Below, piece after piece: positions 11,466-61,605 of a stretch of 64,000 nucleotides of DNA. A program made the position numbers and the translations under genes. The notes beneath the pieces were generated by a model. The model searched no databases. It saw only the letters and a program-made list of their open reading frames with translations, and was not told where the DNA came from. Location of the stretch: positions 63,606 through 127,605 of the forward strand of contig JAXHUO010000001.1 of the NCBI GenBank assembly GCA_034189605.1, in the 5' to 3' direction. The number at the start of each line of letters is the position of its first letter. Position 1 is the first letter of the stretch. This stretch comes from Chloroflexota bacterium (GTDB lineage: Bacteria > Chloroflexota > Anaerolineae > B4-G1).

Positions 11466-11539
11466 CAAGGTGACAGGGGTAGAATTTCGAGTTCCCTTGT
11501 CTCCCGCCCACATCATAAATCTTGTAAAGGTGTGTTCTA

Positions 11540-23275: not shown

Positions 23276-23391
23276 TTTTAGAGTGATTCATCGCCTGCTG
23301 CTCCGTGGCCCAGCGGCTTTATCGCTGGGCGGTCGCGGCGCTCGTCGTGCCTTTCACGTTTTTCAGACATACTCTTGGAAGGGAGTTGTCT

Positions 23392-26145
23392 ATGGACCAA
23401 CGCGAGTATCGCACCCTGATCCTGGCGGGTTTGCTGCACGATATTGGCAAACTGTTCAACAAACCCAAACCGGAGAAAGCCAAGTCACACGCCGTGTATG
23501 GGTACGAGTTTCTACAGCAAAACGATATCGCTTCCCTGCTGCGGCAAGAACGATTTGCTGCTGACGTAGACTTTGATGCACTGTGCGACATGGTGCTGCA
23601 CCACGACCCCCGTGCCTCTGACCAGCCGCCGCGTGTGTCCGCTGATCTCCTGCGCATCATTCGCCTCGCCGACGGCTACTCCGCTGGTGAACGCTCCCTG
23701 ACCCATCTCTATGGCCAGCCGTCTACCGGCGACCTGCCCCTCGATAGCATTTTCACCCGCCGCGACCTGGGCCGTCCCCTCTCCGATTCCAGACCCTTTT
23801 ACAAACCCGCCGTCCTATCTCCCCATGCCGCCTTCCCCGACCCGGACGTCGCGTCCTTGACCGAGGATGACTACTGGGCCGTCAAGGAGGGCTTTGCCGC
23901 CGCTTACCGTTACGCCCTGAGCAAAGCCCGCGATTGGGCCGAGATTGAAGCCTGGACCTACAGTCTCTTTGAGCGTTACACCTGGGCCGTGCCCAGCGCC
24001 CTTCACAAGACCCCCCGTGACGTCTCGCTCTTTGATCACGCCCGCACCAGTTGTGCCCTTGCTGCCGCCGTCTACCTCTATCGCCACGCCAGCAAGGAGG
24101 ACAGGAACCGCAAAACATTCCTCCTCATCAAGGGCGACGTATCAGGAGTGCAAGACTATATCTACAGCGTGGCCAACGTTGGGCCTGGCGGCGTCGCCAA
24201 GCGATTGCGAGCCCGCTCCTTCTTTATCACCGCCCTTACCGAAATCGTCGCCCATTGCCTGCGGGATGAGTTGATGGACGATTGTGCGCTGCCCATCGCC
24301 GCTACCATCTTTGCCGGTGGCGGGCAGTTCGTTCTCCTGGCCCCCAACCTGAAATCAGCAGTGAACAATCTCGCGCGCATCGAAAGAAAAGTCAACCGTT
24401 GGTTGTGGACCGAATTCCAGGGCGACCTGGCTGTTATCTTTGGCGTCGAAGAGGTGGCGACCACCGAACTGGCCATCAAACCCCGCAAGAAAGGCCGGAA
24501 CATCTGCGATGTACTGAGAGACCTGGACGATAAAATCCGAGATGCCAAGAATCGGCGACTGGACTGTCTGCTCCAGATGGATGGCCGATGGCAGCCGGAC
24601 GCCTTTCTGTGGGCGCCTAAAGATAAAAACTACCAGCATGGAGCCTGCCCAAGCTGTGATCGGCTCCCGGCCCGAGCGGACAGTGAAGATGGCGAGGAGA
24701 ATATTGACCGCTGCTTGTGCCAGCGCTGCTTCGACGACCGTCGTCTCTCCGAGCGCATCGTAGACGCCCACTATATCGCCTACTGGCGTGGCGACCTGCC
24801 GTACGAGGCCGACCCCGACTGGCTGAATCGCCGCCGGCTGACATTCTTTGACGGGGACGGGCGCCGCCACGTCGTCCTGCTCGCGAATCTGGATGAACTG
24901 TCGAGGTTCAAGACCTCACCCTACCAACTCGACGGCTTCGGCTACGACGTCGCTGCTCAGAACGAGTCCCACGATACGCACATCCCCCTCATCCGTCACT
25001 TTGCTAACCACGTACCCCACTTTGACTCTCCCCAGGCCCTGGCTGCCTTTTGCACCGCCGGGCGCAGCTGCCTGCAAGGCCGCTATGATGATGACGACAC
25101 CTGCGGCATCCAGGTGCGGCCCGATGGTTCCCACGTGGGGGCGGGCGACTTTCCCATTCTACAGACCTTTGGCTGCATCTCCGCCGCCTCCGCCGAGTGG
25201 CCCGACGGCACCCTCGGCGCCCAGTTCCTGGGCGTCCTCCGCGCCGATGTGGATCACCTCGGACGTCTCTTTACCGCTAGTTTCGAAGAGGAGATCAAGC
25301 ACTCCCAGAAAGCGCCTCCGGAGCAGCGACCGGTCCGCAGCCTTTCCCGCCTGGCCACCCTCAGCCGTATGACCGACCTCTTCTTCAGCGGCTGGGTCAA
25401 CCAGACTTTGGAACACCCTCCAGAGGGCAAGCCCTACGACCGCATCTACACCGTCTACGCCGGCGGCGATGACCTGTGCCTGGTCGGGCCGTGGGACGTG
25501 CTCATTGACTTTGCCCGCTACATGGCGGCCGAGTTCCAGCGCTACGTCGCTGGTAACCCCAACGTCACCCTCTCGGCGGCTGTCACCGTCACCAAACCAA
25601 AGTTCCCCATCGCCACCTCCGCCCACAGGACCGGCGAGCTGTTGAGGGCCGCCAAGAACGCCGGGCGCAACCGGTTCAATCTCTTTGGCGTCATCACCCG
25701 CTGGCGCAAAGAACCCGACGATTGGGTTGATCTGGACAATGCCTTGCGGAAACAACTGAAGGAGCAGAGCAAGCATGCCAATTTGCTCCTCAGTGAACTC
25801 TGGCCGTGGGCCGAACTGCTGGACGAGGAACTGTGCCGTTGGCGGGAGGCCAGGCCGGCCCGCTACCCGGTCTCGACCGGCTTCGCCCACCGGTTGCTGG
25901 GCTATGCCGAGATGGCGCGCCGCTGGGAACAAAAAGAGCGGATCGGCGCTGAGGATTTGCTGTATCTGGCACGGCTGGCCTACGACCTGGGTCGCAACGT
26001 GATCGAGAGCGACGCTGTGCCTGATGATACGAAGCGAAGACTGAACAGGCTGACGCAACTTGCCAACCGGGAGGTGATGGCAGGCATGCGGCTGCCCATC
26101 ACCTATGCATTATACCGCAATCGAGAAAGGAGTCGGGAGCGATGA
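23392..26145 (+). CDS. cas10: Cas10/Csm1, type III large subunit with HD and GGDD motifs
   Basis: N-terminal HD (LLHDIGKL), zinc-finger CPSCD...CLCQRC, and cyclase palm YAGGDDLCLVGPW. ATG at 23392 is preceded by GGAAGGGAG. The stop overlaps the csm2 start (ATGA). Confidence 0.9.
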   Translation: MDQREYRTLILAGLLHDIGKLFNKPKPEKAKSHAVYGYEFLQQNDIASLLRQERFAADVDFDALCDMVLHHDPRASDQPPRVSADLLRIIRLADGYSAGERSLTHLYGQPSTGDLPLDSIFTRRDLGRPLSDSRPFYKPAVLSPHAAFPDPDVASLTEDDYWAVKEGFAAAYRYALSKARDWAEIEAWTYSLFERYTWAVPSALHKTPRDVSLFDHARTSCALAAAVYLYRHASKEDRNRKTFLLIKGDVSGVQDYIYSVANVGPGGVAKRLRARSFFITALTEIVAHCLRDELMDDCALPIAATIFAGGGQFVLLAPNLKSAVNNLARIERKVNRWLWTEFQGDLAVIFGVEEVATTELAIKPRKKGRNICDVLRDLDDKIRDAKNRRLDCLLQMDGRWQPDAFLWAPKDKNYQHGACPSCDRLPARADSEDGEENIDRCLCQRCFDDRRLSERIVDAHYIAYWRGDLPYEADPDWLNRRRLTFFDGDGRRHVVLLANLDELSRFKTSPYQLDGFGYDVAAQNESHDTHIPLIRHFANHVPHFDSPQALAAFCTAGRSCLQGRYDDDDTCGIQVRPDGSHVGAGDFPILQTFGCISAASAEWPDGTLGAQFLGVLRADVDHLGRLFTASFEEEIKHSQKAPPEQRPVRSLSRLATLSRMTDLFFSGWVNQTLEHPPEGKPYDRIYTVYAGGDDLCLVGPWDVLIDFARYMAAEFQRYVAGNPNVTLSAAVTVTKPKFPIATSAHRTGELLRAAKNAGRNRFNLFGVITRWRKEPDDWVDLDNALRKQLKEQSKHANLLLSELWPWAELLDEELCRWREARPARYPVSTGFAHRLLGYAEMARRWEQKERIGAEDLLYLARLAYDLGRNVIESDAVPDDTKRRLNRLTQLANREVMAGMRLPITYALYRNRERSRER

Positions 26146-26573
26146 AAGTGGATCCAGATTTCATAAGAGGGGGCTACTTTGAGATGAAGAACGGTAAACG
26201 GGTAGTCCGGGCCGACCTGATCGCTGAACATGCCCAGGCCTATGGCGAGTTCTTTGCCAAGAACAGGAATGCCCAGGTCTCTAGTAGTCAGTTGCGGGCC
26301 TTTTACAGCGACGTCAAGGCTCTGGAGCAAAAGATCACCCAGGGCGGTGGAGGGGCGTTCGACCGGTATTACTATCTGATCAAGATGCTCAAGTCGAAGG
26401 CCTCCTATGTCCAGGGCAAGCGGTCCGGTGGGCGGGTCTCGGAGGCATTTCGTGACTATGTTCACAAGTGCGTTGACGCGATCGAGACGGAGGATGACTT
26501 TAAGGCGTTTCTAAAGTTCTTCGAAAGCACAGTGGGTTTCTACTACGGAGCCGGAGGGGAGCGAATCAGATGA
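26142..26573 (+). CDS. csm2: Csm2 (Cas11 small subunit, type III-A)
   Basis: 143-aa helical protein in the canonical position, with SSSQLRAFYSDVKAL and KMLKSKASY segments typical of Csm2. Translationally coupled on both sides. Confidence 0.8.
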   Translation: MKVDPDFIRGGYFEMKNGKRVVRADLIAEHAQAYGEFFAKNRNAQVSSSQLRAFYSDVKALEQKITQGGGGAFDRYYYLIKMLKSKASYVQGKRSGGRVSEAFRDYVHKCVDAIETEDDFKAFLKFFESTVGFYYGAGGERIR

Positions 26574-27334
26574 GCGAGAAAATGCAACTCAAAGATTACC
26601 TGACACTGCGCGGCACGCTGCGCTGCGTCACCGGGCTGCGCATCGGCGGCGCGGCCGAGACGATTGAGATCGGCGGGCTGGATAACCCGATTATCAAACA
26701 TCCGCTGACGGGACTGCCCTATGTCCCAGGATCATCTCTCAAGGGAAAGGTGCGGGCGCTTTTGGAACTGCGATTGGACAAGATTGACCCCCGCCCCAAA
26801 GTGGATGGACGCCGCAACCGCGACTACGGCGAGGTGCATCGTCCCGGTGGCTATGGCTGCGAGGGCGAGGACTGCCCCATCTGCCGCATCTTCGGCTCCA
26901 ACGCTGGAGAGGGTGAGGTTGGCCCTGCCCGGCTCATTGTGCGTGATGCTTATCTGACCAATGAGTGGGAGGAGAAAATTCAGGACTGGCTGCTGGAGGG
27001 AAAGCCGGTCACCGAGATCAAGTACGAAAACACGATCAACCGCATCACTGCCATGGCCAACCCGCGCCAGATGGAGCGTGTGCCTGCGGGGATGGAGTTC
27101 GCCTTCGAGATCGGCTATCGCGTCTTTGATACCGGCGACGGCGGCGCGACCGATCGGCGGCTGTTCCAGCGCGTGATTGAGGGGCTGCGGCTGGTCCAGT
27201 CCGACACACTGGGTGGTTCCGGCAGCCGGGGCTATGGCAAGGTCGCCTTCCAAAATTTGATGCTGACTGGCCTGGAGGGCGACGTCCTGGCCCGGGCTGA
27301 TACACTCGATGGGTTGCGTGTTGAACTGTCCTGA
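26570..27334 (+). CDS. csm3: Csm3 (Cas7-family RAMP backbone subunit)
   Basis: LRGTLRCVTGLRIGG...IGGLDNPIIKHPLTGLPYVPGSSLKGKVRALLE and C-terminal GGSGSRGYGKV G-rich loop. Contains a Cys-rich insertion CEGEDCPICRIFG. Confidence 0.9.
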   Translation: MSEKMQLKDYLTLRGTLRCVTGLRIGGAAETIEIGGLDNPIIKHPLTGLPYVPGSSLKGKVRALLELRLDKIDPRPKVDGRRNRDYGEVHRPGGYGCEGEDCPICRIFGSNAGEGEVGPARLIVRDAYLTNEWEEKIQDWLLEGKPVTEIKYENTINRITAMANPRQMERVPAGMEFAFEIGYRVFDTGDGGATDRRLFQRVIEGLRLVQSDTLGGSGSRGYGKVAFQNLMLTGLEGDVLARADTLDGLRVELS

Positions 27335-27389
27335 TGGGTGATCCATCAGCACGGTTGACCGGTTACGATGATCCATCGGTCAGATAGGG

Positions 27390-27735
27390 TATGAAGCATT
27401 TCCGACCGGACATAAAGTGTCCGGTCTACGTAGCAGCGCCCGATGAATCGGGCTTGGGAACGCGGCGACTTTATCGCCGCGTGGTTCCGGTGCAGGGCAT
27501 GGAGGGTTCGATCAGATCGGTATTTCCGACCGGACATAAAGTGTCCGGTCTACGTGGCAGCGCCCGATGAATCGGGCTTGGGAACGCGGCGACTTTATCG
27601 CCACGCGGTTCCGGTGCAGGGCATGGAGGGTTCGATCAGATCGGTATTTCCGACCGGACATAAAGTGTCCGGTCTACGTAGCAGCGCCCGATGAATCGGG
27701 CTTGGGAACGCGGTGGCTTTCGCCGCGTGGCCAGT
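27390..27735 (+). repeat. three tandem 124-bp REP-like units (each three hairpins)
   Basis: The unit start CCGGACATAAAGTGTCCGG recurs at 27406, 27530 and 27654 (period 124). Each unit also has GCCCGAtgaaTCGGGC and GCGGCGActttaTCGCCGCG hairpins. Confidence 0.9.
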
Positions 27736-27759
27736 TGAAACATAAAGGAGCATAGGGTG

Positions 27760-28290
27760 ATGCCTTATTGGCAACTGTTCTATCATCTGGTCTGGTCAAC
27801 CAAGAATCGCCAACCTCTGCTGACCCCCTTGGTCGAGAAGCACATATACGGTTATCTGACCGGTAAGGCCGTTGGGCTCAAGGGTGTTGTCTACGCCATT
27901 GGTGGCACCATAGATCACGTTCATATGGTCGTGGCTATCCCTCCTGCCATTTCAGTGTCCAAGTTTGTTGGCCATGTTAAGGGCGTTGCCTCGACCAGAT
28001 TCAACAAGTCTGGCGTCAGTGACGTACGCTTTGAGTGGCAAGACGAATATGGCGCTTTCTCTTTCGACGCCAAGCGTTTGCCCAACTACATCGCCTACGT
28101 CAAGCGTCAAAAAGAACATCACGCGGCAGGTGCGACCATCCCCATCTTGGAGCGTATGACCTCGGAGAATGTGGGACCGCGTTTGGTGCGGGAGGACGCA
28201 TCGCTTTACGTGACAGAGATGGACACCTGGCGAGCAGGGTTGATAAAGTCATACCCTGTTACAGAAGAGGGCTTTGGTCAAGAATGTTGA
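27760..28290 (+). mobile_element. REP-associated tyrosine transposase (RAYT, IS200/IS605 Y1 HUH family)
   Basis: YHLVWSTKNRQP, HUH motif DHVHMVVAIPP and catalytic-Tyr region NYIAYVKRQKEHH. AAAGGAG RBS lies 9 nt before ATG 27760. It is flanked by inverted REP-like units. Confidence 0.85.
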
Positions 28291-28319
28291 GATTGCCTAT
28301 CCAGCGTGTCATTGGCGGC

Positions 28320-28625
28320 GTATCAAGTCCGATTTATCGGACGTTGCTCCGTAGCCGGGCGACTTTATCGCCCGGCGGTTCCGGCCAGCACGGCTCATCG
28401 CCCGGCGGTTCCGGCCAGCGCGGCTCATCGCCCGGCGGTTCCGGCCAGCACGGCTCATCGCCCGGCGGTCTTGGCCAGCATGGCTCATCGCCCGGCGGTT
28501 CCAGCCAGCACGGCTCATCGCCCGGCGGTTCCAGCCAGCACGGCTCATCGCCCGGCGGTTCCAGCCAGCGCGGTTCATCGCCCGGCGGTTCCGGCCAGCA
28601 CGGCTCATCGCCCGGCGACCCAGGT
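28320..28625. repeat. inverted REP-like unit followed by about nine 30-bp tandem repeats
   Basis: TCCGAtttaTCGGA - CGTTGCTCCGTAG - CCGGGCGActttaTCGCCCGG, then GGCTCATCGCCCGGCGGTTCC(G/A)GCCAGC(A/G)C repeated with a 30-bp period to about 28620. Confidence 0.9.
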
Positions 28626-28708
28626 CAGATTCACAACCCCCGGGTCTCGGAGACCACCAGCGCCACCATCTCACGGTGGTGCAAGCCACCTGAAACGAGG
28701 TCACACGC

Positions 28709-29758
28709 ATGATGAAAACCTACAAACTGACCATCCGCCCCCTCACCTCATTCCGCACGCCACTCCAATCTGATACCATCTTCGGCCACTTGATGTGGGC
28801 GCTGCGCTACACCGAGGGGGAGGATACACTGGTGCAATTTCTGGCCCGCTACCGCGACGGCGATCCGCCGCTGCTCGTCTCGGCCGGCTTCCCGGAAGGT
28901 ACCCTCCCTGTGCCGGTGCTTGGGCCTGAACCGAAAGATCCAAAAGAGAGAGAGCGCAACCCGGCCAACGAGGTCGTGGGGGCCATGTTGCACAAGGCAT
29001 TGGAGGATGGTCGCTACCTGCCGCTCCCGCAATGGCACCAGTTGGCCCAGAATGTGTCGGCACGAACCTTGAAGGGGTTGCTCAGTGATGCCCGGACGAG
29101 ACTGCGAGAACTGAAGAAGGAGGAGCAGGAGCACCTCGTCACCCGTACTGCTGTGGACCGCATCACCGGCAGTGCGCGTAAAGGGCGGCTCTTTGTCGCC
29201 GAGGAGACCTTTTACGGCCCTGGCCGCAAATTCGAGATTTGGCACAAACTGGACGAGAGCGACGACAAGTTGCTCGAACGGCTGGCCCGGTGGTGGCGCT
29301 GGATCCAACGCAACGGCTTTGGACGCGGCAAGTCCACTGGCCACGGCGCGTTCCGCATCGTGGGCCAGGGGCTGGTCGAGGCGGGCGCGGAACTGCCCCA
29401 GGTGGCGAACCCTAACGGATTTGTCACCCTCTCTGCCTGGGTGCCCCGCTCCGGCGACTCTACCAACCCGGGCGACCCCACCGGCGTCACCTACCGCACC
29501 CGCGTCAAGCGCGGCAAACTGGCTGAGGCCTTGGCGCTGTCCAGTCCGTGGAAAAAGCCGCTCCTGATGCTGGAGCCGGGTGCTGTGGCTCGCTTATCCA
29601 AAAAAGATGGAGGGTTACGTGGGTGGTATGGTGGCCTGGTCGCGGGGGTGCACTGGCCAACCCCCGATGTACCAGATGGTGAAAGGGATATTATGCAGGA
29701 CATCGTGCAGTACGGCTATGCCTTCCCGCTGCCGGTGCACATTGAGGAGGGGGCGTGA
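28709..29758 (+). CDS. csm4: Csm4 (Cas5-family RAMP)
   Basis: YKLTIRPLTSFRTPLQSDTIFGHLMWAL N-terminus and GFGRGKSTGHGAF G-rich loop are typical of Csm4. Confidence 0.85.
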   Translation: MMKTYKLTIRPLTSFRTPLQSDTIFGHLMWALRYTEGEDTLVQFLARYRDGDPPLLVSAGFPEGTLPVPVLGPEPKDPKERERNPANEVVGAMLHKALEDGRYLPLPQWHQLAQNVSARTLKGLLSDARTRLRELKKEEQEHLVTRTAVDRITGSARKGRLFVAEETFYGPGRKFEIWHKLDESDDKLLERLARWWRWIQRNGFGRGKSTGHGAFRIVGQGLVEAGAELPQVANPNGFVTLSAWVPRSGDSTNPGDPTGVTYRTRVKRGKLAEALALSSPWKKPLLMLEPGAVARLSKKDGGLRGWYGGLVAGVHWPTPDVPDGERDIMQDIVQYGYAFPLPVHIEEGA

Positions 29759-31086
29759 TGGCCGAGTACTGTTTTCAACTGACCCCGCTCACCCCCATCC
29801 ACGTCGGCACGGGCGAGAGCCTGGAGCCCTTTGAATACGTCATCGCCGGTGACATGCTCTATTGCTTCACCCTCGACGACTTCCTGCTGGCGCTAGACCG
29901 CGACGATCAGGCTCTCTTCGTCCAGGTCGTCGAGCGCAGCGTCCCCGCCACGCGTCACTTTGTCGCCGAGCACGTGGGCGTGGCTGTGAGCGTGGCCCGC
30001 TTCACCGCTACCGTCTCCCCCGCCGCCCGCGCTCTCTACGACGGGCGCATGGAGGGCGGCGTGGCCCACCCTGAGGTCTTTGCCTGCATCCGCACCGGCG
30101 ACCTTCCCTACGTCCCCGGCTCCTCTCTCAAGGGCGCGCTCCGCACCGCGCTGCTCTACCACGCGATGGACAAGGACAACCCCACCCGCGACGCCCGCCG
30201 CTTGGAGCAGGCCGTTTTTGGCTTCCGCACCGTCCAGCAGGACCCCTTCCGCGCCTTTAAAGTGGGCGACGGCAACCCGCTGCAGACCCTCACCCGCGTG
30301 CGGGCGGTGGCCGTCAACACCCGCCGGGCCGGGCGCTGGTCCGAGGATGTGGCCGTGTTGGTGGAGTCGATTCCGGGAACGTTGTCGGATAGCGTGGAGG
30401 AGGCTTCCCAGCACCCCGTTACCTTTGACGCAGATTTCTACCATTACCACGAGCGCGCTTTTCGCCTCAGCCCGAGCGTGGTGCTGGCCGCCTGCCGCGA
30501 CTTCTACGGCACACATCTGGCTGCCGAACGGGACTATGCCCGTGACCTCGCACCGACCGCGGCCGCCTACGATACGCTGGCCGCCCGCGCCGAGAGCCTG
30601 CCCGACCACGCTTGCCTGGTGCGGCTGGCCTGGGGCAGCGGGCGCGATGCCACCACCGTGGCCTACGGCCTGCGGGATGGACGTAGCCCCGCGTCCCGCC
30701 GCCTCACCGCCGACGGCTTCCCGCTGGGCTGGGCTGAACTGGCGGTATTCGACGCCGACGGGCAGCCGGTTGGAGTGGGAGAAACGCCGGTTGCCGTAGG
30801 CGCGCCGCCGAAGCGACAGCCCCTGGACACACGGCCCCGCAGCCTGCACGACCTGCGGGAGGGGATGGTGCTGGAGGGAACCGTCAAGCGCACGGTCAAC
30901 TACGGCGCGTTCGTGGACATCGGCGTGGGACGGGACGGATTGATCCACGTCTCCAAACTGGCAGATGGTTTTGTGGAGCGGGTGGAGGCGATCGTGCGAT
31001 CCGGGGATCGAGTGCGCGTCCAGATCCTGGACGTGGATATAAAACGTCGCCGCATCGGCCTGAAACTGGTGGAGGCCTTGCATTAA
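29758..31086 (+). CDS. csm5: Csm5 (Cas7-like RAMP) fused to a C-terminal S1 RNA-binding domain
   Basis: N-terminal FQLTPLTPIHVGTGE and GDLPYVPGSSLKGALRTALLYH (Csm5 signatures). From about 30850 the sequence reads LREGMVLEGTVKRTVNYGAFVDIGVGRDGLIHVSKLADGFVE...GDRVRVQILDVDIKRRRIGLKL, a canonical S1/OB fold of the type found at the Tex C-terminus. Confidence 0.8.
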   Translation: MAEYCFQLTPLTPIHVGTGESLEPFEYVIAGDMLYCFTLDDFLLALDRDDQALFVQVVERSVPATRHFVAEHVGVAVSVARFTATVSPAARALYDGRMEGGVAHPEVFACIRTGDLPYVPGSSLKGALRTALLYHAMDKDNPTRDARRLEQAVFGFRTVQQDPFRAFKVGDGNPLQTLTRVRAVAVNTRRAGRWSEDVAVLVESIPGTLSDSVEEASQHPVTFDADFYHYHERAFRLSPSVVLAACRDFYGTHLAAERDYARDLAPTAAAYDTLAARAESLPDHACLVRLAWGSGRDATTVAYGLRDGRSPASRRLTADGFPLGWAELAVFDADGQPVGVGETPVAVGAPPKRQPLDTRPRSLHDLREGMVLEGTVKRTVNYGAFVDIGVGRDGLIHVSKLADGFVERVEAIVRSGDRVRVQILDVDIKRRRIGLKLVEALH

Positions 31087-31147
31087 GCTCTACAACTTGC
31101 AACCCTGCATACTTGCACACTTGCACGCTTGCACCCTGGCGCTAACA

Positions 31148-32131
31148 ATGACCGACACAATCCAGCTTCCCAATCTGCATATTGCCCTCTTCCGCTTCAC
31201 CCTGGAACCACGTACCCCCCTCCACCTCCCCCCCTACAAAGGCAGCGTACTCCGGGGCGGCTTTGGCCACGTCTTCAAGCGCACCGTCTGTGTCCAGCCC
31301 CGGGTGCGGACCTGCGCTACCTGCCTGCTGGCCGAGACTTGCGCCTACGCCTACCTCTTCGAGACGCGGCCCCCGCCGGGGAGCCAGGTGCTGCGCACCC
31401 ACGAGGCCGTCCCCCGCCCCTTTGTCATCCGGCCACCGCTGGACAGGCGCACCGAGATTCCCGCCGGCGAACCTTTGACCTTTGGGCTGGTGCTGGTGGG
31501 ACGGGCGATGGGTTACCTGCCCTACTTTTTGGTCGTCTTTCGGGAATTGGGGGAGGCGGGGTTAGGGCGAGGACGGGGGAAGTATATATTGCGGGAGGTG
31601 CGGGCGGTGCACCCGCTGAGCGGAGAGGAGCGGCTGGTCTACGATGGGGAGACACTGCTCGGGACCGGGCTGGAGGTGGCGGCGGAAAAAGTGGCCGCCT
31701 GGGCGGAGGAACTGCCATTCGACCGGTTGACGGTACGTTTCCTGACCCCGGCGCGGCTCAAACACGGGGGAGAGTTTATGCGGGCCGGGGTGGACTTTCA
31801 CGTCCTGGTGCGGGCGCTCCTGCGGCGGCTCTCCTCGCTTTCCTACTTTCACTGTGGGGAGCGGTGGGAGACCGACTATCCCGGCTGGGTGGAGCGGGCG
31901 GAGCAGGTGGAGGTGGCCGAGACGCACCTGAGTTGGGTGGAGTGGGAGCGATACTCGGGGCGGCAGGCGCACCGTATCAAGATGGGAGGTGTGGTGGGCA
32001 GTGTGACCTACGCGGGCGACCTGGCCCCTTTCCGGCCCCTCCTGGCGTTGGGGATGCTGGCACACGTGGGGAAGGGGGCGGTGTTTGGCAATGGACTGTA
32101 TACAATGGCAAATGAACAAATGAACAAATGA
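31148..32131 (+). CDS. cas6: Cas6-family pre-crRNA endoribonuclease (Cys-rich PF10040-like variant)
   Basis: LHIALFRFTLEP...PYKGSVLRGGFGH..., CxxC cluster CATCLLAETCAY, and C-terminal G-rich loop HVGKGAVFGNGLY. It lies immediately upstream of the array. Confidence 0.75.
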   Translation: MTDTIQLPNLHIALFRFTLEPRTPLHLPPYKGSVLRGGFGHVFKRTVCVQPRVRTCATCLLAETCAYAYLFETRPPPGSQVLRTHEAVPRPFVIRPPLDRRTEIPAGEPLTFGLVLVGRAMGYLPYFLVVFRELGEAGLGRGRGKYILREVRAVHPLSGEERLVYDGETLLGTGLEVAAEKVAAWAEELPFDRLTVRFLTPARLKHGGEFMRAGVDFHVLVRALLRRLSSLSYFHCGERWETDYPGWVERAEQVEVAETHLSWVEWERYSGRQAHRIKMGGVVGSVTYAGDLAPFRPLLALGMLAHVGKGAVFGNGLYTMANEQMNK

Positions 32132-32415
32132 CAAATGAACAAATCGAGCATCGGGGGGGGGGGTACTTGTGGAGGTGCTCGAAAAGTGAGGGGATGTGCC
32201 CGCCAGATGTGGGGGGTGGGAGGTGAGGGACTGCAAGATGTGGGGGGTGGAGATGAACCACGTTCGAGCGTCCCCCCTGTTTTGGGGCCGGGCGCGATGC
32301 TCGAAAAATACAAAGTGGGACGTAAATCCCAGGAAAGGGGGCAAAATGAGGCTAAAATGGGGCACGTGTGGGGGAAAAATGGTCAAAAACGCCCCGTGAG
32401 GTGCCGGATAGGGCA

Positions 32416-33650
32416 GTGGAAATGACCTTCCCGATGAGTAGGGGATTGCTACGTAGCCGTCTTGGCCGTAGTCGGGGTCCCCGTAGCACATTGAACACAC
32501 AGTGGAAATGACCTTCCCGATGAGTAGGGGATTGCTACTTGTGCAACGACAGCACTGTCTCAATGCGGTCGGATTGAAGTTGTGGAAATGACCTTCCCGA
32601 TGAGTAGGGGATTGCTACAGTGCCACCCGGAACATCCGGGTCCTCGAATCCAATGGCTGCTACCGGTGGAAATGACCTTCCCGATGAGTAGGGGATTGCT
32701 ACTCCGTCGCCGGTGGTTATGACCGCGGTGTTATCGCGGGGGCCGCAGGTGGAAATGACCTTCCCGATGAGTAGGGGATTGCTACACCAGAGATGCTAAA
32801 ACGGCCCAGTACCCCCACTGCACGTTGTCGGCCGTGGAAATGACCTTCCCGATGAGTAGGGGATTGCTACTGATATACATGCCAATCAAGTTGACGTAGC
32901 CCGTCAATGGTGGAAATGACCTTCCCGATGAGTAGGGGATTGCTACCCATTTTTCACCTCCAAAAATTTTTGGTGGTGGCCCTCAGGGTGGAAATGACCT
33001 TCCCGATGAGTAGGGGATTGCTACGAAGTACCCCATCCGCCCGTGCATTTCGGCGAGCGCAGTGGAAATGACCTTCCCGATGAGTAGGGGATTGCTACCT
33101 GATCCGGTCATCAAAGTCATTGGTGGGAGGCGTAAACTCGTGGAAATGACCTTCCCGATGAGTAGGGGATTGCTACAGCAGGCTCGCCCAGGTGTTCGAT
33201 GGCAGAAGCCATCGTGGAAATGACCTTCCCGATGAGTAGGGGATTGCTACATTGAATTGGACACTCGTTGTTTGCGCACTTCCCACGCTTGCGTGGAAAT
33301 GACCTTCCCGATGAGTAGGGGATTGCTACTGCATCACGCAGTTGACCACCTCAAACTCTGTCCACTCCTCGAAGGTGGAAATGACCTTCCCGATGAGTAG
33401 GGGATTGCTACCAGTTGGGTTCTACAACCTCAGAAAACTCCTGAGTGTAAAAGTGGAAATGACCTTCCCGATGAGTAGGGGATTGCTACCACAGTTGCGG
33501 CGGCTGTGGCCTGGAGAAGGTTAATTAGCAGTGGAAATGACCTTCCCGATGAGTAAGGGATTGCTACGTTCACGGTGACGTGGCCCAGCGGTAAGACTTT
33601 TTTTGAAAAAAAAGTGGAAATGACCTTCCCGATGAGTAGGGGATTGCTAA
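32416..33650 (+). CRISPR. CRISPR array, 16 repeats of 37 bp, 15 spacers of 37-49 bp
   Basis: Repeat GTGGAAATGACCTTCCCGATGAGTAGGGGATTGCTAC starts at 32416, 32502, 32582, 32666, 32749, 32834, 32910, 32988, 33062, 33140, 33214, 33293, 33375, 33453, 33531 and 33614. The last two repeats are mutated (G to A at 33556, terminal C to A at 33650), so the leader is on the cas6 side. The 3' octamer ATTGCTAC fits a Cas6-generated 8-nt crRNA tag. Confidence 0.97.
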
Positions 33651-33840: not shown

Positions 33841-34098
33841 CCTGGCGACTTTATCGCCAGGCGGTCTACGGCCGGCGCGGGTGGCGCCTCCTCCTCGCCA
33901 ATACGCTCGCCGGCCGGTCTACGGCCAGCGCGGGTGGTGCATCCCCCTCGCCAATACGCTCGCCAGCCAGCCCCGCCGGGGTCAAGTGCCCCGGCTACGC
34001 AGTCACCCCCCCGTAAACGGGGTTCCTGAGCCCGATTTATCGGGCGGGGGCTTTGTAGCCTGGCGACTTTATCGCCAGGCGGTCTACTTCCTCGCCAA
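33841..34098. repeat. REP-like hairpin cluster
   Basis: CCTGGCGACTTTATCGCCAGGCGGTCTAC at 33841 and 34059. Also CCGGGGtcaaGTGCCCCGG, CCCCGtaaaCGGGG, GCCCGAtttaTCGGGC, and a duplicated CTCGCCAATACGCTCGCC. Confidence 0.85.
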
Positions 34099-34402: not shown

Positions 34403-36511
34403 ATGAAAATGGATGCCACTGAAAGGTCCTTGCTGGAAACTCATTCCATCCCGGCAATCGCCCGGCGCGAGTCGGCAGAGGAGACAGGCCAGGGATTGGT
34501 GGAATATGCGCTTATCCTGGTCCTGGTTGCGGTTGTCGTCGTGGTAGTTTTGACGTCTGTAGCGCCGCGTGTCTCTGAACTCTTCCAGGCAGCGATAACA
34601 GCCATCAGTGATGCCCCTTCCTACCTGCAGATCGGTTTGATTGTGGCCTTGCTCATCCCTCTGGTTGTTTGGTTGGTTCGCCTGGCCCCGCAACTCCCCA
34701 AGGTGCTTGGGACCGACGTTCGCCAACTCGAATTGACCGCCAGGGATTACCGGCGCGTCGAGTCGGAGATCACGGTTGCTCTTCTGGAAACCGGCCGGGC
34801 CAGGCGAAAGGACGTTGGCTTGAGCGCGGGCCTGTGGGACCTTTCGGTTCAGAGATACGTGGAGCAGCATAGAGAGGCGCGGATTCATTACGACGATCGC
34901 CGGCGCGCGATCGTCGCCGCCAACGCGGATGCGCTTGGCTCCTTGGGCCGATTGTGGCCTCGCTTGGAACTGTCTCCCCCTCAGTCTGAGGTGGAGCGTA
35001 TAGTTATTGAGGCCCTCGGTCTGCTCGCTCGGGCCCTGTCGGGGATTATAGTCGCTGTCCCTCAGGATATCCTCCAGGATAGGGGCCGGCTATACGTTTT
35101 GGACCTGGCCCCGTGGGACTCGCCACTGCCCTCCCAGTTGCCGGTACTGGTCTGGCTGGCCGCCGCGGTCCCGGGGATGGGAGAGATCGAGCAACTCAGC
35201 CGCCGGTTGCTTTCCCAATTTGGAGCGGTCAGGCGCGTTGCCGTCTTGATTGACCTGGCGGGCGATGACCCGGCCCGGCGCACGTCCATGCCCGAGTTGC
35301 TCGAAAAACTGCGGCAGGTCTTTGCCTACGACTTTGTCCCGCTGGGACAGGAGGAAATCGCTCGGATACTGATTGCCAGAAAACCCCGCGCTGCCCTGGC
35401 CCACCTGGTGCTCCCGCACGTCAACCTGATCTCCATTTCCCCGTTCGTTCTGACCGGCCCGGCCCCGGATACGATGTTTTTTGGCCGTGAGTTAGAGATG
35501 CGCAAGATCGCCGAGCGCATCGCCTCCAATTCTTATGTTCTGATCGCCGGCCGCCGTTTTGGCAAATCATCGGTTCTCCTGCGCCTGCACCGGGTCCGTC
35601 TGCCCGCTGCTGGCTTTCGCACTATCTACCACGATTGCTCCACCACCCCCACCGCCCAGGCCCTTCTCTCAGCCACGATTCGTGACTGGAGGCCAGAGCC
35701 CCCCTCGGATTCCCCTCTGACCTTTGCGGATCTGCTGCGCTCTCCGCCCGACGATAGCCCCCTTGTCCTACTCCTGGACGAGGCGGACAAACTTGTCCCC
35801 GCTGACCGTGCGGACGGCTGGCGACTGTTTAACATGTTACGAGCGCTGTCCAACTCTGGCCGGGCCCAGATCGTCCTCAGCGGCGAGCGCACGCTGCGCG
35901 ACGCGCTGCGTGACCCCGGCAGCCCGCTGTTCAATTTCGCCAACGAGGTACTCCTCGGTCCTCTCGACCGCCGCGCCGCGGAGGAACTGGTCACCCGGCC
36001 GCTGCAGCAACTGGAGATTGATCTGGTGGATGAGGCGGCGATTGTGCGCCGCATCTATGATTTTACCTCCGGTCACCCCAACGTCGTCCAACGGCTGTGT
36101 CACCGCTTGATCGAACGGCTCAACGAGCGAGGCACGCGCCGCGTCACGTTGGACGATGCGAACGCGGTTATCAAAGACCCCGGCTTTCTGCGCAACGACT
36201 TTCTCAGTACCTATTGGGAGGCCGCTACCTCCCTGGAGAAAATTATCTCCCTGTTGATGGCCGACGACGAGGATTTGCATACCTTGCGCGCTGTGCGGCG
36301 GGCCTTGCTGGAACGCTGTGACCTGCGGCCCAGGGCCCACGAGGTGGACGCCGCCTTGCAACGGCTGGTGGACCTGCGCTTTCTCCTGAGGCGTGCTCCC
36401 GCCGGCTACGAGTTTGCCGTGGAAGCCTTCCCTCTGGTGGCGGCCGGGACGATGACCCTGGACGATATGCTGGAGATCCTTGCTGAAGAGTACCAGGAGC
36501 AGAGAGAATGA
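34403..36511 (+). CDS. membrane-anchored P-loop ATPase (Arch_ATPase/ATPase_2-like) with a Flp-pilin-like N-terminal segment
   Basis: aa 29-50 GQGLVEYALILVLVAVVVVVVL (Flp-type G/xxxEY hydrophobic motif), a second TM at aa 74-95, and an unassigned alpha/beta region at aa ~225-345. Then FFGRELEMRKI...LIAGRRFGKSSVL (Walker A) and LVLLLDEADKL (Walker B), with a winged-helix-like tail. The stop overlaps the next start (ATGA). Confidence 0.65.
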   Translation: MKMDATERSLLETHSIPAIARRESAEETGQGLVEYALILVLVAVVVVVVLTSVAPRVSELFQAAITAISDAPSYLQIGLIVALLIPLVVWLVRLAPQLPKVLGTDVRQLELTARDYRRVESEITVALLETGRARRKDVGLSAGLWDLSVQRYVEQHREARIHYDDRRRAIVAANADALGSLGRLWPRLELSPPQSEVERIVIEALGLLARALSGIIVAVPQDILQDRGRLYVLDLAPWDSPLPSQLPVLVWLAAAVPGMGEIEQLSRRLLSQFGAVRRVAVLIDLAGDDPARRTSMPELLEKLRQVFAYDFVPLGQEEIARILIARKPRAALAHLVLPHVNLISISPFVLTGPAPDTMFFGRELEMRKIAERIASNSYVLIAGRRFGKSSVLLRLHRVRLPAAGFRTIYHDCSTTPTAQALLSATIRDWRPEPPSDSPLTFADLLRSPPDDSPLVLLLDEADKLVPADRADGWRLFNMLRALSNSGRAQIVLSGERTLRDALRDPGSPLFNFANEVLLGPLDRRAAEELVTRPLQQLEIDLVDEAAIVRRIYDFTSGHPNVVQRLCHRLIERLNERGTRRVTLDDANAVIKDPGFLRNDFLSTYWEAATSLEKIISLLMADDEDLHTLRAVRRALLERCDLRPRAHEVDAALQRLVDLRFLLRRAPAGYEFAVEAFPLVAAGTMTLDDMLEILAEEYQEQRE

Positions 36512-38367
36512 GCCTTGTCCCGTTCAGGACCGGCGGCCCATTGACCGATGAACACGCTGCCATTTACGTCGAACGCAGAGCCGACCGCGACGCGCTGACC
36601 CATTTGCACGCGATGGACTACCTGCTGGTCATCGAGCCGCGCCAGCAGGGCAAGACCAGCCTGATCAACCACCTGATGCGCCACCCGGCCTTGTCCGGTC
36701 TGTCCTTTGTTTACGTGGACGTGGCTACGCCCGACCGTTCGACCGAGGCGGCCTGGTATCGGACGTTCTGCCCCCGTTTCTTGCGCCAACTGCGCGACTT
36801 TATCCCGCGTGACCAGTGGCCTGCCATCCCTCAGAACAGCACCGGCTGGCGCGAGTTCCTGGGCGACGTGGCCGCGCTTGCCGCTGCCGCCCACCGGCGG
36901 GTGGTCGTTGCCCTGGACGAGATCGGCGCCGTGACGTTCCCCGGCGCGACCGGGTTCTTTAGCGTCCTGCGCGACGTGTACAACTCGCGCCAGGCTGAGA
37001 CCGAGTTTAAGCAGTTGACCTTTCTGCTGACCGGGGCCTTCCATCCGCGCGATCTGATCACGGACAACAGGATCTCGCCCTTCAACGTCGCCCAGCGCGT
37101 GCGCCTGGCCGACTTTACCCTGGCGCAGGTGCACCAATTGGTTGGCGCAGGGGATTGGGCAGGTGAGCAGGCCAGGAGGTTGGCCGAACGGATCCATTAT
37201 TGGACAGACGGCCAGCCCTATCTGACCCAATTGCTCTGTTCCTACCTGGATGGCGGCGCGAGCCCTCTGGACGTGGATGGCGGCGTCGAGCGGTTGCGCC
37301 GCGAGGACGAAAATCACCTGCCCCCGCTGTTGGCCCGGCTCGACCGTGACGAAAGGCTGCGGGAGTACGTTGAACGCATCCTGGCGGGTGAGCGCATCAA
37401 GTTTTACCCGCGCGAAAACCGGCGACAGGCACAATTAGAGTTGCTGGGTCTTGTCAAGGCTGATGTGGAAGGGTATTGCATCGTCCGCAACCGTCTCTAC
37501 GTACAGACACTGGGTGCACTCGATGAGACGTCTGCCGGAATATCTGCCCCGAGCAGGGAAGGCGGGGTGGCGCCAGCTCATAGAGTCCGCTCTTCAGCTG
37601 TTGTCCCCCAGGAACTGAGCGGGGAGATGAGAAAGGGCAACGTCGTTCTTTTTGTCGGTGCGGGTCTCTCCATCGGCGCTGGGCTGCCCGGTTGGGGCGC
37701 ACTCGTGCGTCCACTGGCGGAAGACATCGGCTACGAGGGGCACGACTTGCTCAAAGCGGCCCAGTATTATGAGAATCGCAGGGGACGGCATGCCCTGATC
37801 TCCTACCTGCGGGACCGGTTGGATACGACCGGCATTGAGCCGACCGGGAACCACGAGCTCCTCGTTCGGCTACCGGTCAATATTGTGTTCACCACTAACT
37901 TTGATGATTTGCTGGAGCGGGCCTACCGCAAGGCCGGGCGACCGGTCAACCTGGTGGTGGGGGCGGCGGAACTGCCATTCTGGGACGAGGCGCGGGTCAA
38001 TCTGGTCAAATTACACGGCACCCACGACCGCCCGGCCACGTTCACCATCACGGAGCGGGACTATAACACCATCTACCGTAACAACCCCCTCGTCGTGCAG
38101 CAACTCAACGCCTTGCTGGCGATCAAGACCTTTCTGTTCGTTGGCTACAGCGTGAGCGATCCCGACTTTAACCAGATCTATGACCAACTGAGCGTTGACC
38201 TGGGCTGGCACCGCCGCCGCCCGTATCTGGTCACCTTTGGTGGGGATGAACTCGTGGTGGAGAACCTGAAGCGGCGTGGTTACCACCTGATCAGCCTGTC
38301 GGGTGAGGGGGAGCGCAACGCCCGGCTGGCAGAATGGCTACAGGTCTTGCTGGAGAGCAGCCGGTGA
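36508..38367 (+). CDS. AAA-like (AAA_35-type) NTPase fused to a C-terminal SIR2_2 domain
   Basis: N-terminus: YVERRADRDAL...LLVIEPRQQGKTSL (Walker A), VVVALDEIG (Walker B). From about 37630: VLFVGAGLSIGAGLPGW, FTTNFD, LVKLHGT, FVGYSVSDPDF, the four hallmark blocks of SIR2_2 (PF13289-type) NADase domains. Confidence 0.8.
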   Translation: MSLVPFRTGGPLTDEHAAIYVERRADRDALTHLHAMDYLLVIEPRQQGKTSLINHLMRHPALSGLSFVYVDVATPDRSTEAAWYRTFCPRFLRQLRDFIPRDQWPAIPQNSTGWREFLGDVAALAAAAHRRVVVALDEIGAVTFPGATGFFSVLRDVYNSRQAETEFKQLTFLLTGAFHPRDLITDNRISPFNVAQRVRLADFTLAQVHQLVGAGDWAGEQARRLAERIHYWTDGQPYLTQLLCSYLDGGASPLDVDGGVERLRREDENHLPPLLARLDRDERLREYVERILAGERIKFYPRENRRQAQLELLGLVKADVEGYCIVRNRLYVQTLGALDETSAGISAPSREGGVAPAHRVRSSAVVPQELSGEMRKGNVVLFVGAGLSIGAGLPGWGALVRPLAEDIGYEGHDLLKAAQYYENRRGRHALISYLRDRLDTTGIEPTGNHELLVRLPVNIVFTTNFDDLLERAYRKAGRPVNLVVGAAELPFWDEARVNLVKLHGTHDRPATFTITERDYNTIYRNNPLVVQQLNALLAIKTFLFVGYSVSDPDFNQIYDQLSVDLGWHRRRPYLVTFGGDELVVENLKRRGYHLISLSGEGERNARLAEWLQVLLESSR

Positions 38368-38370
38368 CCG

Positions 38371-38690
38371 CGCGGCGACGAGATCGCCGCGCTACAGAGT
38401 TGCACCCCGTAAACGGGAAAGACCCGTCGCCGAAGCGGCCAAGCCCGATTTATCGGGCGCTGCTTCGTAGCCGGGGCACTTTATGCCCCGGCGATGCCGA
38501 CTGGCAATCCCCCCGGGCACTTTACCCCGGCGATGCCGACTGGCAATCCCCCCGGGCACTTTACCCCGGCGATGCCGGCAGGCGATCACCCCGGGCACTT
38601 TACCCCGGCGATGCCGACTGGCAATCCCCCCGTGCACTTTACCCCGGCGATGCCGACTGGTGATCACCCCGGGCACTTTGCCCCGGCTTG
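38371..38690. repeat. REP-like hairpin cluster plus about five 39-bp tandem repeats
   Basis: GCGGCGAcgagaTCGCCGC directly after the stop. CCCCGtaaaCGGG. The inverted double-hairpin unit GCCCGAtttaTCGGGC-GCTGCTTCGTAG-CCGGGGCActttaTGCCCCGG. Then CGATGCCGACTGGCAATCCCCCCGGGCACTTTACCCCGG repeated about five times. Confidence 0.9.
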
Positions 38691-38745
38691 GGTCAACAAT
38701 CCCCTTTTCGCTTGTGTGCAGATGGCACTGGCGCTGCTAATCCAT

Positions 38746-38836
38746 CGCCGCCTCTTCCAGGGCCGCGCGGCATTAGCAGATGCTCCCCCTGCCTGCGTGA
38801 GCAGGGGTTGTCGTTTTGGGGTGGAGGCGGTATAAT
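38746..38836 (+). promoter_or_regulatory. duplicated promoter cassette, copy 1 (TTGTCG-17-TATAAT)
   Basis: -35 at 38808-38813 and -10 at 38831-38836. The whole ~90-bp segment recurs at 39490-39581. Confidence 0.6.
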
Positions 38837-38887
38837 GTCAGCAAGAAGGTGCTTGCTGTTCATCAAATAGGGTGGGGTGGAAACGGA

Positions 38888-39316
38888 ATGGACAATCCCG
38901 ATCAGGTGAAAGAGGCCAGCGCGTCGTACTCTATGCCGGTGACTGACCTTAGTCATCCTATCATTCTGGAGCGCGATGGACAACCGGTGGCTGTGTTGAT
39001 GGGCATTGAGGAATACGAGCGTTACCAGGCTCTGTTGGAGGAACACCAGGGGGTATCCGCGCTTAAAGCCCGTCGTGCGGCAGACCGCGCTGTGTTTGGC
39101 GACCTGGTCGGCTGCGCGCTGAGCAGTGGGGATCCGGAATGGGCTCCTGCTCCTGAACCGCGTTGGCGCGTACCCTATAGGAGTTTCGATGGAACGTTGC
39201 TGGCTGTGGTGGAGGTGGACGCGCGCACGCGGGCCGTATCGCTCACAGATGAGGAACGCACCGCACTCCTGGAACAGGTTGAACGTCTGGTGACCGCCAA
39301 CGATGTCTCTGCTTGA
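38888..39316 (+). CDS. hypothetical protein with a Phd/YefM-like antitoxin N-terminal segment
   Basis: PIILERDGQPVAVLMGIEEYERYQALLE resembles the Phd/YefM fold. The rest is unassigned and no adjacent toxin ORF is seen. Start placed at ATG 38888, 52 nt after the -10. Confidence 0.45.
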   Translation: MDNPDQVKEASASYSMPVTDLSHPIILERDGQPVAVLMGIEEYERYQALLEEHQGVSALKARRAADRAVFGDLVGCALSSGDPEWAPAPEPRWRVPYRSFDGTLLAVVEVDARTRAVSLTDEERTALLEQVERLVTANDVSA

Positions 39317-55571: not shown

Positions 55572-55633
55572 GAGGCTGTCTCCTTTTCTCCTCGTTTACG
55601 TAGGGCATGCTGTCATATTGCAGAACTACTGCA

Positions 55634-56551: not shown

Positions 56552-56591
56552 GTGACACCTCCTCATCTTGGATACCTGACAACTTGCAGGT

Positions 56592-59894: not shown

Positions 59895-59926
59895 GGCAAG
59901 CCTCCTTTCGTGTATCCTTCAGCGGA

Positions 59927-61582: not shown

Positions 61583-61605
61583 GCGTGGGTTCCTCACGTG
61601 TTATC

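Follow-up and report, generated by a model that had tools for sequence, protein, structure and literature searches.

A recurrent, apparently undescribed Csm5 variant carrying a C-terminal S1 domain in type III-A CRISPR loci

Related type III effectors and the csm5::S1 locus

[quoted passage not shown] In S. epidermidis Csm5 must recruit the host S1-domain exonucleases PNPase and RNase R: the predicted disordered C-terminal region of the subunit recruits and stimulates PNPase, RNase R is bound as well, and the two enzymes jointly trim the crRNA 3' ends (PMC9762709). At the far end of the Cas7 filament, divergent RNA-contacting modules have been described in types III-E, III-Dv and III-D2 (PMC13294483). 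In a type III-B complex, target binding strictly requires that the seed at the crRNA 3' end be exposed, a result that was obtained with the Cmr complex and not with a Csm complex (PMC8376896). S1 fusions were reported by Makarova et al. in 2011, in the part of their text concerned with the Csx10/all1473 type III variant, which is now classified as III-D (PMC3150331).

The locus described here lies in a window of 64,000 nucleotides, that is, the whole stretch of DNA that was analysed. Its csm5::S1 gene codes for the Csm5 subunit of a type III-A (Cas10-Csm) effector with a canonical RAMP body, to which a predicted ssRNA-binding S1 domain is added via a Pro-rich tether of about 16 residues. The joining of an S1 OB-fold to a type III effector component is common to this gene and to the III-D variant as presented in the 2011 text. 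However, that variant is characterized there by the signature genes csx10 and all1473/csx19 and by a Cas10 without an HD domain, while the present locus is a plain III-A system with an HD-Cas10. Membership in the III-D S1-fusion variant was ruled out by the presence of csm2-csm5 equivalogs together with the HD-Cas10, and no other RAMP genes were found at the locus beyond the csm set. In comparison with S. epidermidis Csm5 (PMC9762709), the same end of the subunit is the interface to RNA metabolism, as is proposed for csm5::S1, but there a disordered peptide borrows host enzymes by transient contacts, whereas here a folded S1 domain is attached covalently and no nuclease is implied. Cmr1 of type III-B and the INS domain of Cas7.4 (III-E/III-Dv/III-D2) share with the S1 module the topological position at the crRNA 3' end and a proposed contact with guide-target RNA; their folds are unrelated to S1 and they are rigid parts of their complexes, whereas the csm5::S1 module is a tethered, generic predicted ssRNA binder.

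The original prediction had taken the fusion to be undescribed. As far as the literature is concerned this could be maintained, since our search found no paper pairing Csm5 with an S1 or OB domain or with a C-terminal extension, and neither the 2025 classification paper nor the 2018 accessory-gene survey has Csm5-S1 in its main text. The statement has to be qualified, because S1 fusions are known in another type III variant and the fusion proteins themselves are already deposited in public databases, under "Csm5" or "S1 RNA-binding domain-containing protein". Csm5-S1 is apparently an undescribed, recurrent variant.

Operon, gene model and domains

The genes of the intact type III-A operon are arranged in the order cas10-csm2-csm3-csm4-csm5::S1-cas6 on the plus strand, beside a CRISPR array of 16 repeats. 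The cas10/csm1 gene (23305..26145; TIGR02578, 512.6 bits) carries the HD, Csm1_B and second palm domains (PF01966 for HD, PF18211, PF22335). It is followed by csm2 for the small subunit (26142..26573; PF03750, 64.4 bits; TIGR01870, 49.8 bits), csm3 for the Cas7 backbone subunit (26570..27334; TIGR02582, 217.9 bits) and csm4, a Cas5 (28709..29758; TIGR01903, 83.9 bits). Downstream of csm5::S1 there is a long form of cas6 (31097..32131; about 328-344 aa, with an alternative start at 31129; PF10040, 68.8 bits) and then the array (32416..33650, plus strand), in which the 37-nt repeat GTGGAAATGACCTTCCCGATGAGTAGGGGATTGCTAC occurs 16 times, the last two copies being degenerate, with spacers of 37-49 nt. 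The order cas10-csm2-csm3-csm4-csm5 with cas6 and an array was also observed in the related loci L001-L004, L084, L081, L087 and L090, and cas6 orthologues stand after csm5::S1 in L001-L005, L084 and L090. The array repeat is identical in L085, and related repeats adjoin cas6 in L001 and L004. Since the operon is conserved and the arrays are spacer-rich in the window and in the relatives, the csm5::S1 systems look active as judged from their sequences. Because an IS200-like insertion separates csm3 and csm4 in the window operon, it is not certain that the operon is expressed in this genome.

The csm5::S1 gene is one continuous ORF (29755/29758..31086, plus strand) of 442 aa counted from the ATG at 29758, which shares bases with the csm4 stop (TGATG). 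Inside the end of csm4, at 29744..29753 of the plus strand, the gene is preceded by the strong Shine-Dalgarno sequence GAGGAGGGGG. Within the ORF three parts could be distinguished: the Csm5 RAMP body (aa 1-341, 29758..30780), a Pro-rich flexible linker (aa 342-357, 30781..30828), and the S1 OB-fold RNA-binding domain with the stop codon (aa 358-442, 30829..31086). TIGR01899 (Csm5) recognized the product with 64.9 bits against a cutoff of 38.3, the alignment covering only positions 3-134 of the 364 in the profile, and PF03787 (RAMP) gave 45.7 bits. For the S1 domain, PF00575 gave 61 bits where 22 are required, its positions 3-71 of 74 aligning with aa 367-435, i.e. nt 30856-31062, which agrees with the earlier placement of the S1 domain at about 30850-31083. 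The two profile searches suggested in the original prediction, PF00575 and TIGR01899, were therefore both above cutoff, the Pro-rich linker quoted in it, GETPVAVGAPPKRQPLDTRPRS, was found in the protein, and the fusion of Csm5 with S1 that it had proposed was borne out by the profiles, the structure model, the fold search and the conservation.

The AlphaFold2 model of the protein had a mean pLDDT of 86.8, with a confident body (aa 1-341). In Foldseek it matched 28 Csm5 chains of solved Csm complexes (E 2e-15 to 2.5e-9, TMt 0.55-0.72), the best one being 6mur_F (E 2e-15, TMt 0.65), with 6ldn, 6ifk_H, 7uzz_E and 8x5d_N among the others. These canonical subunits of T. onnurineus (6MUR_F/6LDN), S. 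thermophilus (6IFK_H), S. epidermidis (7UZZ_E) and M. tuberculosis (8X5D_N), matched with E values of 2e-15 to 1e-11, have the RAMP body, the fold and the position after csm4 in common with csm5::S1, but they end a few residues past the last RAMP strand, whereas in csm5::S1 a tether of 16 aa and an S1 domain of 85 aa follow. Among the best 150 of at least 1708 Csm5 representatives, the nearest non-fused relatives (P0121, P0122 and P0124) end 5-12 aa past the PLGW strand. The csm5::S1 product is presumed to join the Cas10-Csm complex and to cap the crRNA 3' end.

The linker was disordered in the model (pLDDT below 50). Across the family its sequence identity is just 30%, while its length stays within 13-22 aa (mode 16). 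Being disordered and variable in sequence yet constant in length within these bounds, the tether has the look of a flexible spacer whose reach is constrained. The residues behind it (aa 358-442) were modelled as a five-stranded antiparallel OB beta-barrel with pLDDT 83-90 (strands at aa 371-380, 383-387, 393-397, 418-427 and 432-441). The canonical RNA-binding positions of S1 domains are occupied by Y382, F385, H397, D425 and R430, which we take to be equivalent to F19, F22, H34, D64 and R68 of the PNPase S1 domain on the basis of a hand alignment to the E. coli sequence. Y/F382 and F385 are each retained in 55 of the 56 family members, H397 in 52 and R430 in 45 (with Lys in four more), while D425, the counterpart of PNPase D64, is variable (25 of 56). 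The dN/dS values were 0.14-0.34 for the S1 part and 0.17-0.25 for the Csm5 body. Identity to the window protein in the distant clade P0067/P0089/P0115 is 57-65% for the S1 domain but only 29-31% for the body. The dN/dS values show that purifying selection acts on the S1 part as it does on the body; together with the kept RNA-binding residues and the higher identity of S1 than of the body in this clade, they indicate a domain that is functional rather than decaying.

The S1 domain had been labelled Tex-like, and as a statement of similarity this is correct: the best solved single-domain match was the S1 domain of P. aeruginosa Tex (PA5201; 2OCE/3BZC/3BZK), with 73 bits and, in 3BZK, 53% identity and an rmsd of 0.9 Å over 76 residues, while the S1 domains of ribosomal protein S1 and PNPase were 39-43% identical with an rmsd of 1.0-1.6 Å. 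The csm5::S1 domain shows the complete S1 signature, including the conserved aromatic, His and Arg residues. The label does not extend to family membership. Tex carries Tex_N, YqgF-like, HHH and HHH_9 domains before its S1, whereas profile search found no Tex_N, YqgF, HHH or HHH_9 domain in the csm5::S1 product, which consequently is not a Tex family member. The host tex gene itself is in the window (51751-54078, minus strand), where Tex_N, YqgF-like, HHH, HHH_9 and S1 were all found; its S1 domain is 39-42% identical to that of csm5::S1 and has a 6-aa deletion, so that the domain was not copied recently from the tex gene of this host. Many of the nearest short matches listed are HHH_9+S1 fragments, i.e. 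Tex C-termini. Among the matches listed, such fragments are 47-55% identical to the csm5::S1 domain and the multi-S1 proteins P0114, P0064 and P0065 48-49%, in an S1-only database search whose candidates (at least 70 short ones) form an unfair census of possible donors. By sequence identity Tex C-termini and multi-S1 proteins thus appear about equally near, and the comparison does not single out Tex as the origin of the domain.

Recurrence of the fusion

The survey of Csm5 homologues for C-terminal extensions that had been recommended was carried out on the best 150 of at least 1708 Csm5 representatives; it revealed that the S1 domain is recurrent, and also a cold-shock domain and basic tails. 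Within this set the same fusion, with the same length, was present in P0001-P0053 (54-90% identity) and in the loci L001-L004 and L084, the clusters coming mostly from Chloroflexota/Anaerolineae MAGs. S1 domains that differ strongly from that of the window (22-29% identical to it) occupy the same position in P0168, from a Desulfobacteraceae MAG, and in P0221, whose full III-A locus also includes Card1, cas1 and cas2. In P0051 a cold-shock domain, another OB fold that binds ssDNA as well as RNA, stands in place of S1 at the Csm5 C-terminus; this variant is known from one 1962-bp contig at 3.5x coverage, and for this reason may be a chimera. K/R/E-rich (basic) tails were seen on many other Csm5 relatives. 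P0054 also has a C-terminal module on Csm5. The 559-aa Csm5 of S. marcescens (9ZS2) gave no S1 match, and no extension is discussed in the corresponding paper.

Proposed role of the S1 domain at the crRNA 3' end

S1 domains are mainly ssRNA binders, and a lone S1 domain has no nuclease activity. The S1 domain on Csm5 would probably give the complex an extra RNA-holding arm. From the position of Csm5 and the tether it follows that the domain would be held a few nanometres from the crRNA 3' end and the 5' side of the bound target transcript. Pairing with the target starts from this end in the type III complex for which the matter has been studied. There it could serve as a sequence-unspecific "fishing arm" for ssRNA, gripping the flanking single-stranded part of the transcript and raising the local RNA concentration and the residence time at the seed end, and as a result rare or structured target transcripts would be captured better. 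Such a role would be analogous to that of the Csm5 capping domain, Cmr1 and the INS domain of III-E/III-D. We regard it as an even proposition that a tethered, sequence-unspecific ssRNA arm at the crRNA 3' end aids the capture of target transcripts.

The same data fit equally well with binding of the crRNA 3' tail, which leads to a second explanation. The S1 domain may bind the 3' tail that the repeat leaves on the intermediate crRNA after Cas6 cleavage, either presenting it to the host 3'-5' exonucleases or shielding it from them, and in this way would replace or modify the recruitment of PNPase and RNase R by Csm5, as had been suggested from the sequence. The original prediction had offered an RNA-capture arm as the alternative, and these two ideas are still the most favoured ones. 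It is attached at the same C-terminal end that recruits PNPase in S. epidermidis Csm5, at a subunit located at the crRNA 3' end, and because the spacers are long and variable (37-49 nt), 3' trimming is to be expected. On the other hand, the S1 domain by itself is devoid of nuclease activity, tail binding and target binding are not told apart by the present data, and the eLife authors rate the functional value of maturation as probably nominal (PMC9762709), so that it is less evident why a dedicated domain should be selected for strongly and repeatedly. Taken as a whole, this explanation is possible but rather doubtful.

An adaptor function is unlikely. Here the Tex-like S1 domain would dock the Csm complex on RNA polymerase, the ribosome or the degradosome, or would bind the ssDNA of the transcription bubble and so place the HD nuclease of Cas10. 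Tex, the best solved match, is a transcription accessory factor, the HD domain is kept in this Cas10, and the cold-shock domain of P0051 binds ssDNA too. However, RNA rather than DNA is the chief ligand of S1 domains, no partner gene is conserved beside the fusion in the loci compared, and the independent fusions carry very different S1 domains, so that a conserved protein-protein interface is improbable.

It is very improbable that the fusion is an artefact or relic, whether produced by a frameshift, by faulty gene calling or assembly, or by a recent neutral joining without function. The short S1 proteins P0267-P0271, which seem to stand alone and share 76-88% identity with the domain, and the truncated copy in L086 might point to it, but these are contig-end fragments or a truncated remnant rather than separate genes (the end of the contig cuts P0267, and P0268 is found in L086 behind what is left of a truncated csm5). 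Moreover, a single ORF of 435-448 aa is kept in more than 50 protein clusters and in five species-level genomes, the loci are conserved, the dN/dS of the S1 part is well under 1 and the architecture recurs in other lineages. The frameshift or assembly error named in the original prediction as the result that would overturn it is ruled out, since csm5 and S1 form one ORF whose length is unchanged in the relatives (P0001-P0053, L001-L004, L084).

Returning to the RNA-capture arm, we tentatively suggest, as a possibility only, that the Csm5 C-terminus may be a general docking point for interchangeable nucleic-acid-binding modules forming a hitherto unnoticed type III-A "capture arm", which would tune the sensitivity to rare transcripts or would free the complex from host PNPase and RNase R, enzymes that carry S1 domains themselves. 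On this view the modules are S1 domains, which would have been acquired repeatedly, together with the cold-shock domain and the basic tails.

The general picture of the working principle of type III systems is left unchanged by Csm5-S1. Type III immunity needs to find transcripts that are possibly rare, and the Csm5 end is among the less understood parts of the complex; a natural, conserved S1 fusion that recurs at this end offers a clean handle on whether added RNA affinity there governs the capture of targets, the sensitivity of signalling or the trimming of crRNA. For engineering, an S1 or CSD arm placed on Csm5 may lead to more sensitive type III-based RNA diagnostics.

The fused gene and its operon

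A type III-A operon was identified on the plus strand of the window by ORF and profile searches, comprising cas10/csm1 (23305-26145; HD, Csm1_B and palm2 domains, TIGR02578 512.6 bits), csm2 (26142-26573), csm3 (26570-27334), csm4 (28709-29758), the csm5::S1 ORF (29758-31086) and cas6 (31097-32131), together with a CRISPR array (32416-33650) of 16 repeats of 37 nt. The csm5::S1 ORF encodes 442 aa without interruption; its ATG is preceded by the Shine-Dalgarno sequence GAGGAGGGGG and overlapped by the csm4 stop codon (TGATG). The protein matched the Csm5 profile TIGR01899 (64.9 bits, cutoff 38.3), the RAMP profile PF03787 and, at aa 367-435, the S1 profile PF00575 (61 bits). The original prediction of a Csm5 joined to an S1 domain in one ORF was confirmed at the coordinates it gave, and the Pro-rich linker it had quoted is present.

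The fusion of Csm5 with S1 is real, and it is both conserved and recurrent. Database searches returned more than 50 clusters (54-90% identity), all of 435-448 aa and all with RAMP and S1 parts. In the one-genome-per-species collection full-length relatives were found in four Anaerolineae/Anaerolineales/Chloroflexota MAGs (loci L001-L004), while at a further locus, L005, the contig end cuts the gene and leaves a partial copy (aa 242-441). The gene order cas10-csm2-csm3-csm4-csm5::S1-cas6, with 0-2.8 kb between csm4 and csm5::S1, is kept among the relatives. In case of six orthologues the dN/dS values (Nei-Gojobori) were 0.17-0.25 for the Csm5 body, 0.14-0.34 for the S1 domain, and higher and noisy for the linker. 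The short "stand-alone" S1 proteins, candidates for separate S1 genes, proved to be contig-end fragments or a truncated remnant. Since the architecture is shared by all these clusters, the operon order is conserved, the fragments are accounted for and dN/dS is low, it could be excluded that the fusion stems from a frameshift or assembly error or is a neutral relic; neither the split genes nor the missing profile support that had been named as grounds against the fusion were encountered.

Surroundings of the operon

An additional gene lies between csm4 and csm5::S1 in L001, L003 and L004 (1.7-2.0 kb) and in the related locus L084 (7177-10008; 943 aa product, weak TPR match), and is absent from the window and L002. 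Between csm3 and csm4 of the window (27334-28709) an IS200-like Y1 transposase is encoded (27757-28290, +; PF01797, 77.5 bits), which may be a REP-associated RAYT and is flanked by tandem repeats of 124 nt x 2.6 copies (27398-27720) and 30 nt x 8.4 copies (28367-28617). Since the csm3-csm4 spacing is only 0-219 nt in L001-L004 and L084, the insertion is specific to the window genome; it may alter the expression of csm4, csm5 and cas6. Five copies of the 15-nt palindromic hairpin GGCGACTTTATCGCC are present in the window, where none is expected by chance, all on the plus strand: those at 27464, 27588 and 28358 flank the transposase, and those at 33844 and 34062 follow directly after the CRISPR array. 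The hairpin resembles a REP-type element tied to the transposase. Between cas6 and the first repeat a 96-aa ORF (32135-32425, +) without family match overlaps the putative leader of the array; the weak similarity seen at the equivalent place in L004 may just reflect leader conservation.

Defence-island-like genes surround the locus at 34403-39316 and 54315-61597. These encode an nSTAND1 NTPase (34403-36511), an AAA_35 + SIR2_2 protein (36508-38367), a Phd/YefM antitoxin-like ORF (38816-39316) and, on the minus strand, a caspase (Peptidase_C14)-TIR protein (54315-55571), an 1100-aa ORF without Pfam match (56592-59894) and a TIR-domain protein (59927-61597). The ORFs scanned at 12.6-61.6 kb of the window included neither cas1/cas2 nor a CARF or Card1-type effector; Card1 is encoded in the related loci L081 and L087.

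Fold, origin and recurrence of the S1 domain

From 56 family members an AlphaFold2 model was built (mean pLDDT 86.8), in which a confident Csm5 body (aa 1-341) is followed by a disordered linker (aa 342-357, pLDDT <50) and a five-stranded S1 barrel (aa 358-442, pLDDT 83-90). In Foldseek searches of the PDB the body matched 6mur_F (E 2e-15) and the Csm5 chains of other solved complexes (6ldn, 6ifk_H, 7uzz_E, 8x5d_N), and the barrel matched the S1 domain of P. aeruginosa Tex (3bzk; 53% identity, rmsd 0.9 Å), followed by ribosomal S1 and PNPase S1 domains (39-43% identity). Every testable feature of a Csm5 and of an S1 domain was observed in the protein. In the family alignment Y/F382 (55/56), F385 (55/56), H397 (52/56) and R430 (45/56) are conserved; we take them to correspond to the classic RNA-binding residues of S1 domains. 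Linker sequences share only 30% identity within the family, yet their length is held at 13-22 residues. Since the closest Csm5 relatives lacking S1 end 5-12 residues past the last RAMP strand (PLGWAEL), the S1 domain is a clean C-terminal appendage. Of the solved Csm5 chains, the unusually long S. marcescens Csm5 (559 aa; PDB 9ZS2_J / 9ZS4) is closest in sequence; it gave no S1 match and is a further case of Csm5 size variation; the paper describing it is silent about the extra length (bioRxiv 10.64898/2026.03.30.715313).

A sequence search of the PDB likewise placed Tex (73 bits in one domain) before the best ribosomal S1 domain (45 bits), so the label "Tex-like" is fair as a description of similarity. 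It would extend to similarity only, canonical Tex C-termini (HHH_9+S1 fragments, 47-55% identical to the Csm5 S1) and multi-S1 proteins (48-49%) both being candidate donors. The fused protein itself is not a Tex, lacking the Tex-specific domains. The window happens to include the complete Tex gene of the host (51751-54078, minus strand; Tex_N, YqgF, central region, HHH_3, HHH_9, S1). The S1 of this Tex is only 39-42% identical to that of Csm5 and lacks 6 aa of canonical Tex; thus a recent local copy was ruled out.

P0067, P0089 and P0115 form a distant Csm5 clade that occurs in a III-A locus with Card1; their S1 domains share 57-65% identity with that of the window, their bodies 29-31%. In a further representative, P0123, the values are 55% and 39%. 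These S1 domains scored 92-103 bits against that of the window, cellular S1 domains in the set at most 77. When the Csm5 body alone was used in an exhaustive search, 1708 representatives were obtained, and among the best 150 of these S1 was present in four full-length ones: P0036 (the family of the window), P0123, P0221, from a complete III-A locus that also has Card1, cas1 and cas2, and P0168, from a Desulfobacteraceae MAG. Since the S1 domains of P0221 and P0168 are only 22-29% identical to that of the window, their sequences suggest separate acquisition. The C-terminal module differs even within the window's own family: in P0051 (L089 605-1891; one 1962-bp contig, 3.5x coverage) a cold-shock domain (PF00313, 55 bits) replaces S1, and P0054 (L090 2979-4289), its operon intact, ends in an approx. 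50-aa segment (GDWSKGTVKVELPAGEQGYLKISRK...) without assigned family. Tails rich in K/R/E occur in neighbouring clades and in many further Csm5 proteins.

Between the window and the distant-clade locus L081, Cas6 (31097-32131 and 10604-11701, respectively) is 51% identical, while identity is only 25-31% for Cas10, Csm2, Csm4 and the Csm5 body, and 40% for Csm3. The S1 domain (approx. 60%) shares this excess conservation, which may stem from an exchange of modules or from a common constraint tied to the repeat or the crRNA 3' handle.

Proposed role and relation to known systems

Csm5 caps the Csm3 filament, bound to the crRNA 3' end (bioRxiv 10.64898/2026.03.30.715313), and its variable capping domain is the sole part contacting target RNA (PMC10289348). 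[quoted passage not shown] From the demonstrated architecture, fold, conservation and context we infer, as the best-supported function, that the S1 domain would be an arm, tethered at the crRNA-3' head of the complex, that binds ssRNA without sequence specificity. The conserved RNA-binding surface, the flexible tether of fixed length, the apparent swap for another ssRNA-binding OB fold and the independent acquisition in other lineages argue for it. The favoured task of such an arm, with about an even chance, would be to capture or retain the target transcript.

In S. epidermidis the disordered C-terminal region of Csm5 recruits and stimulates PNPase, Csm5 additionally binds RNase R, and both enzymes trim the 3' ends of crRNAs and aid immunity if few target transcripts are available (PMC9762709). 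The main rival explanation, that the S1 domain handles the crRNA 3' tail and replaces or modifies exonuclease recruitment, appears rather unlikely; a putative role as protein adaptor or ssDNA binder is improbable.

S1 fusions are mentioned for a III-D-like variant by Makarova et al. 2011 (PMC3150331). The window locus does not belong to that variant, since csx10 and all1473 are absent and its Cas10 has an HD domain; the protein is a type III-A Csm5 and not a new kind of system. The fusion had been thought undescribed, and no description was found in the searchable open-access papers; the proteins themselves are, however, already in public databases under generic names. Nucleic-acid-binding domains added to Cas subunits are unsurprising in themselves; the Csm5-S1 fusion offers a direct experimental handle on the role of the Csm5 end in type III complexes.
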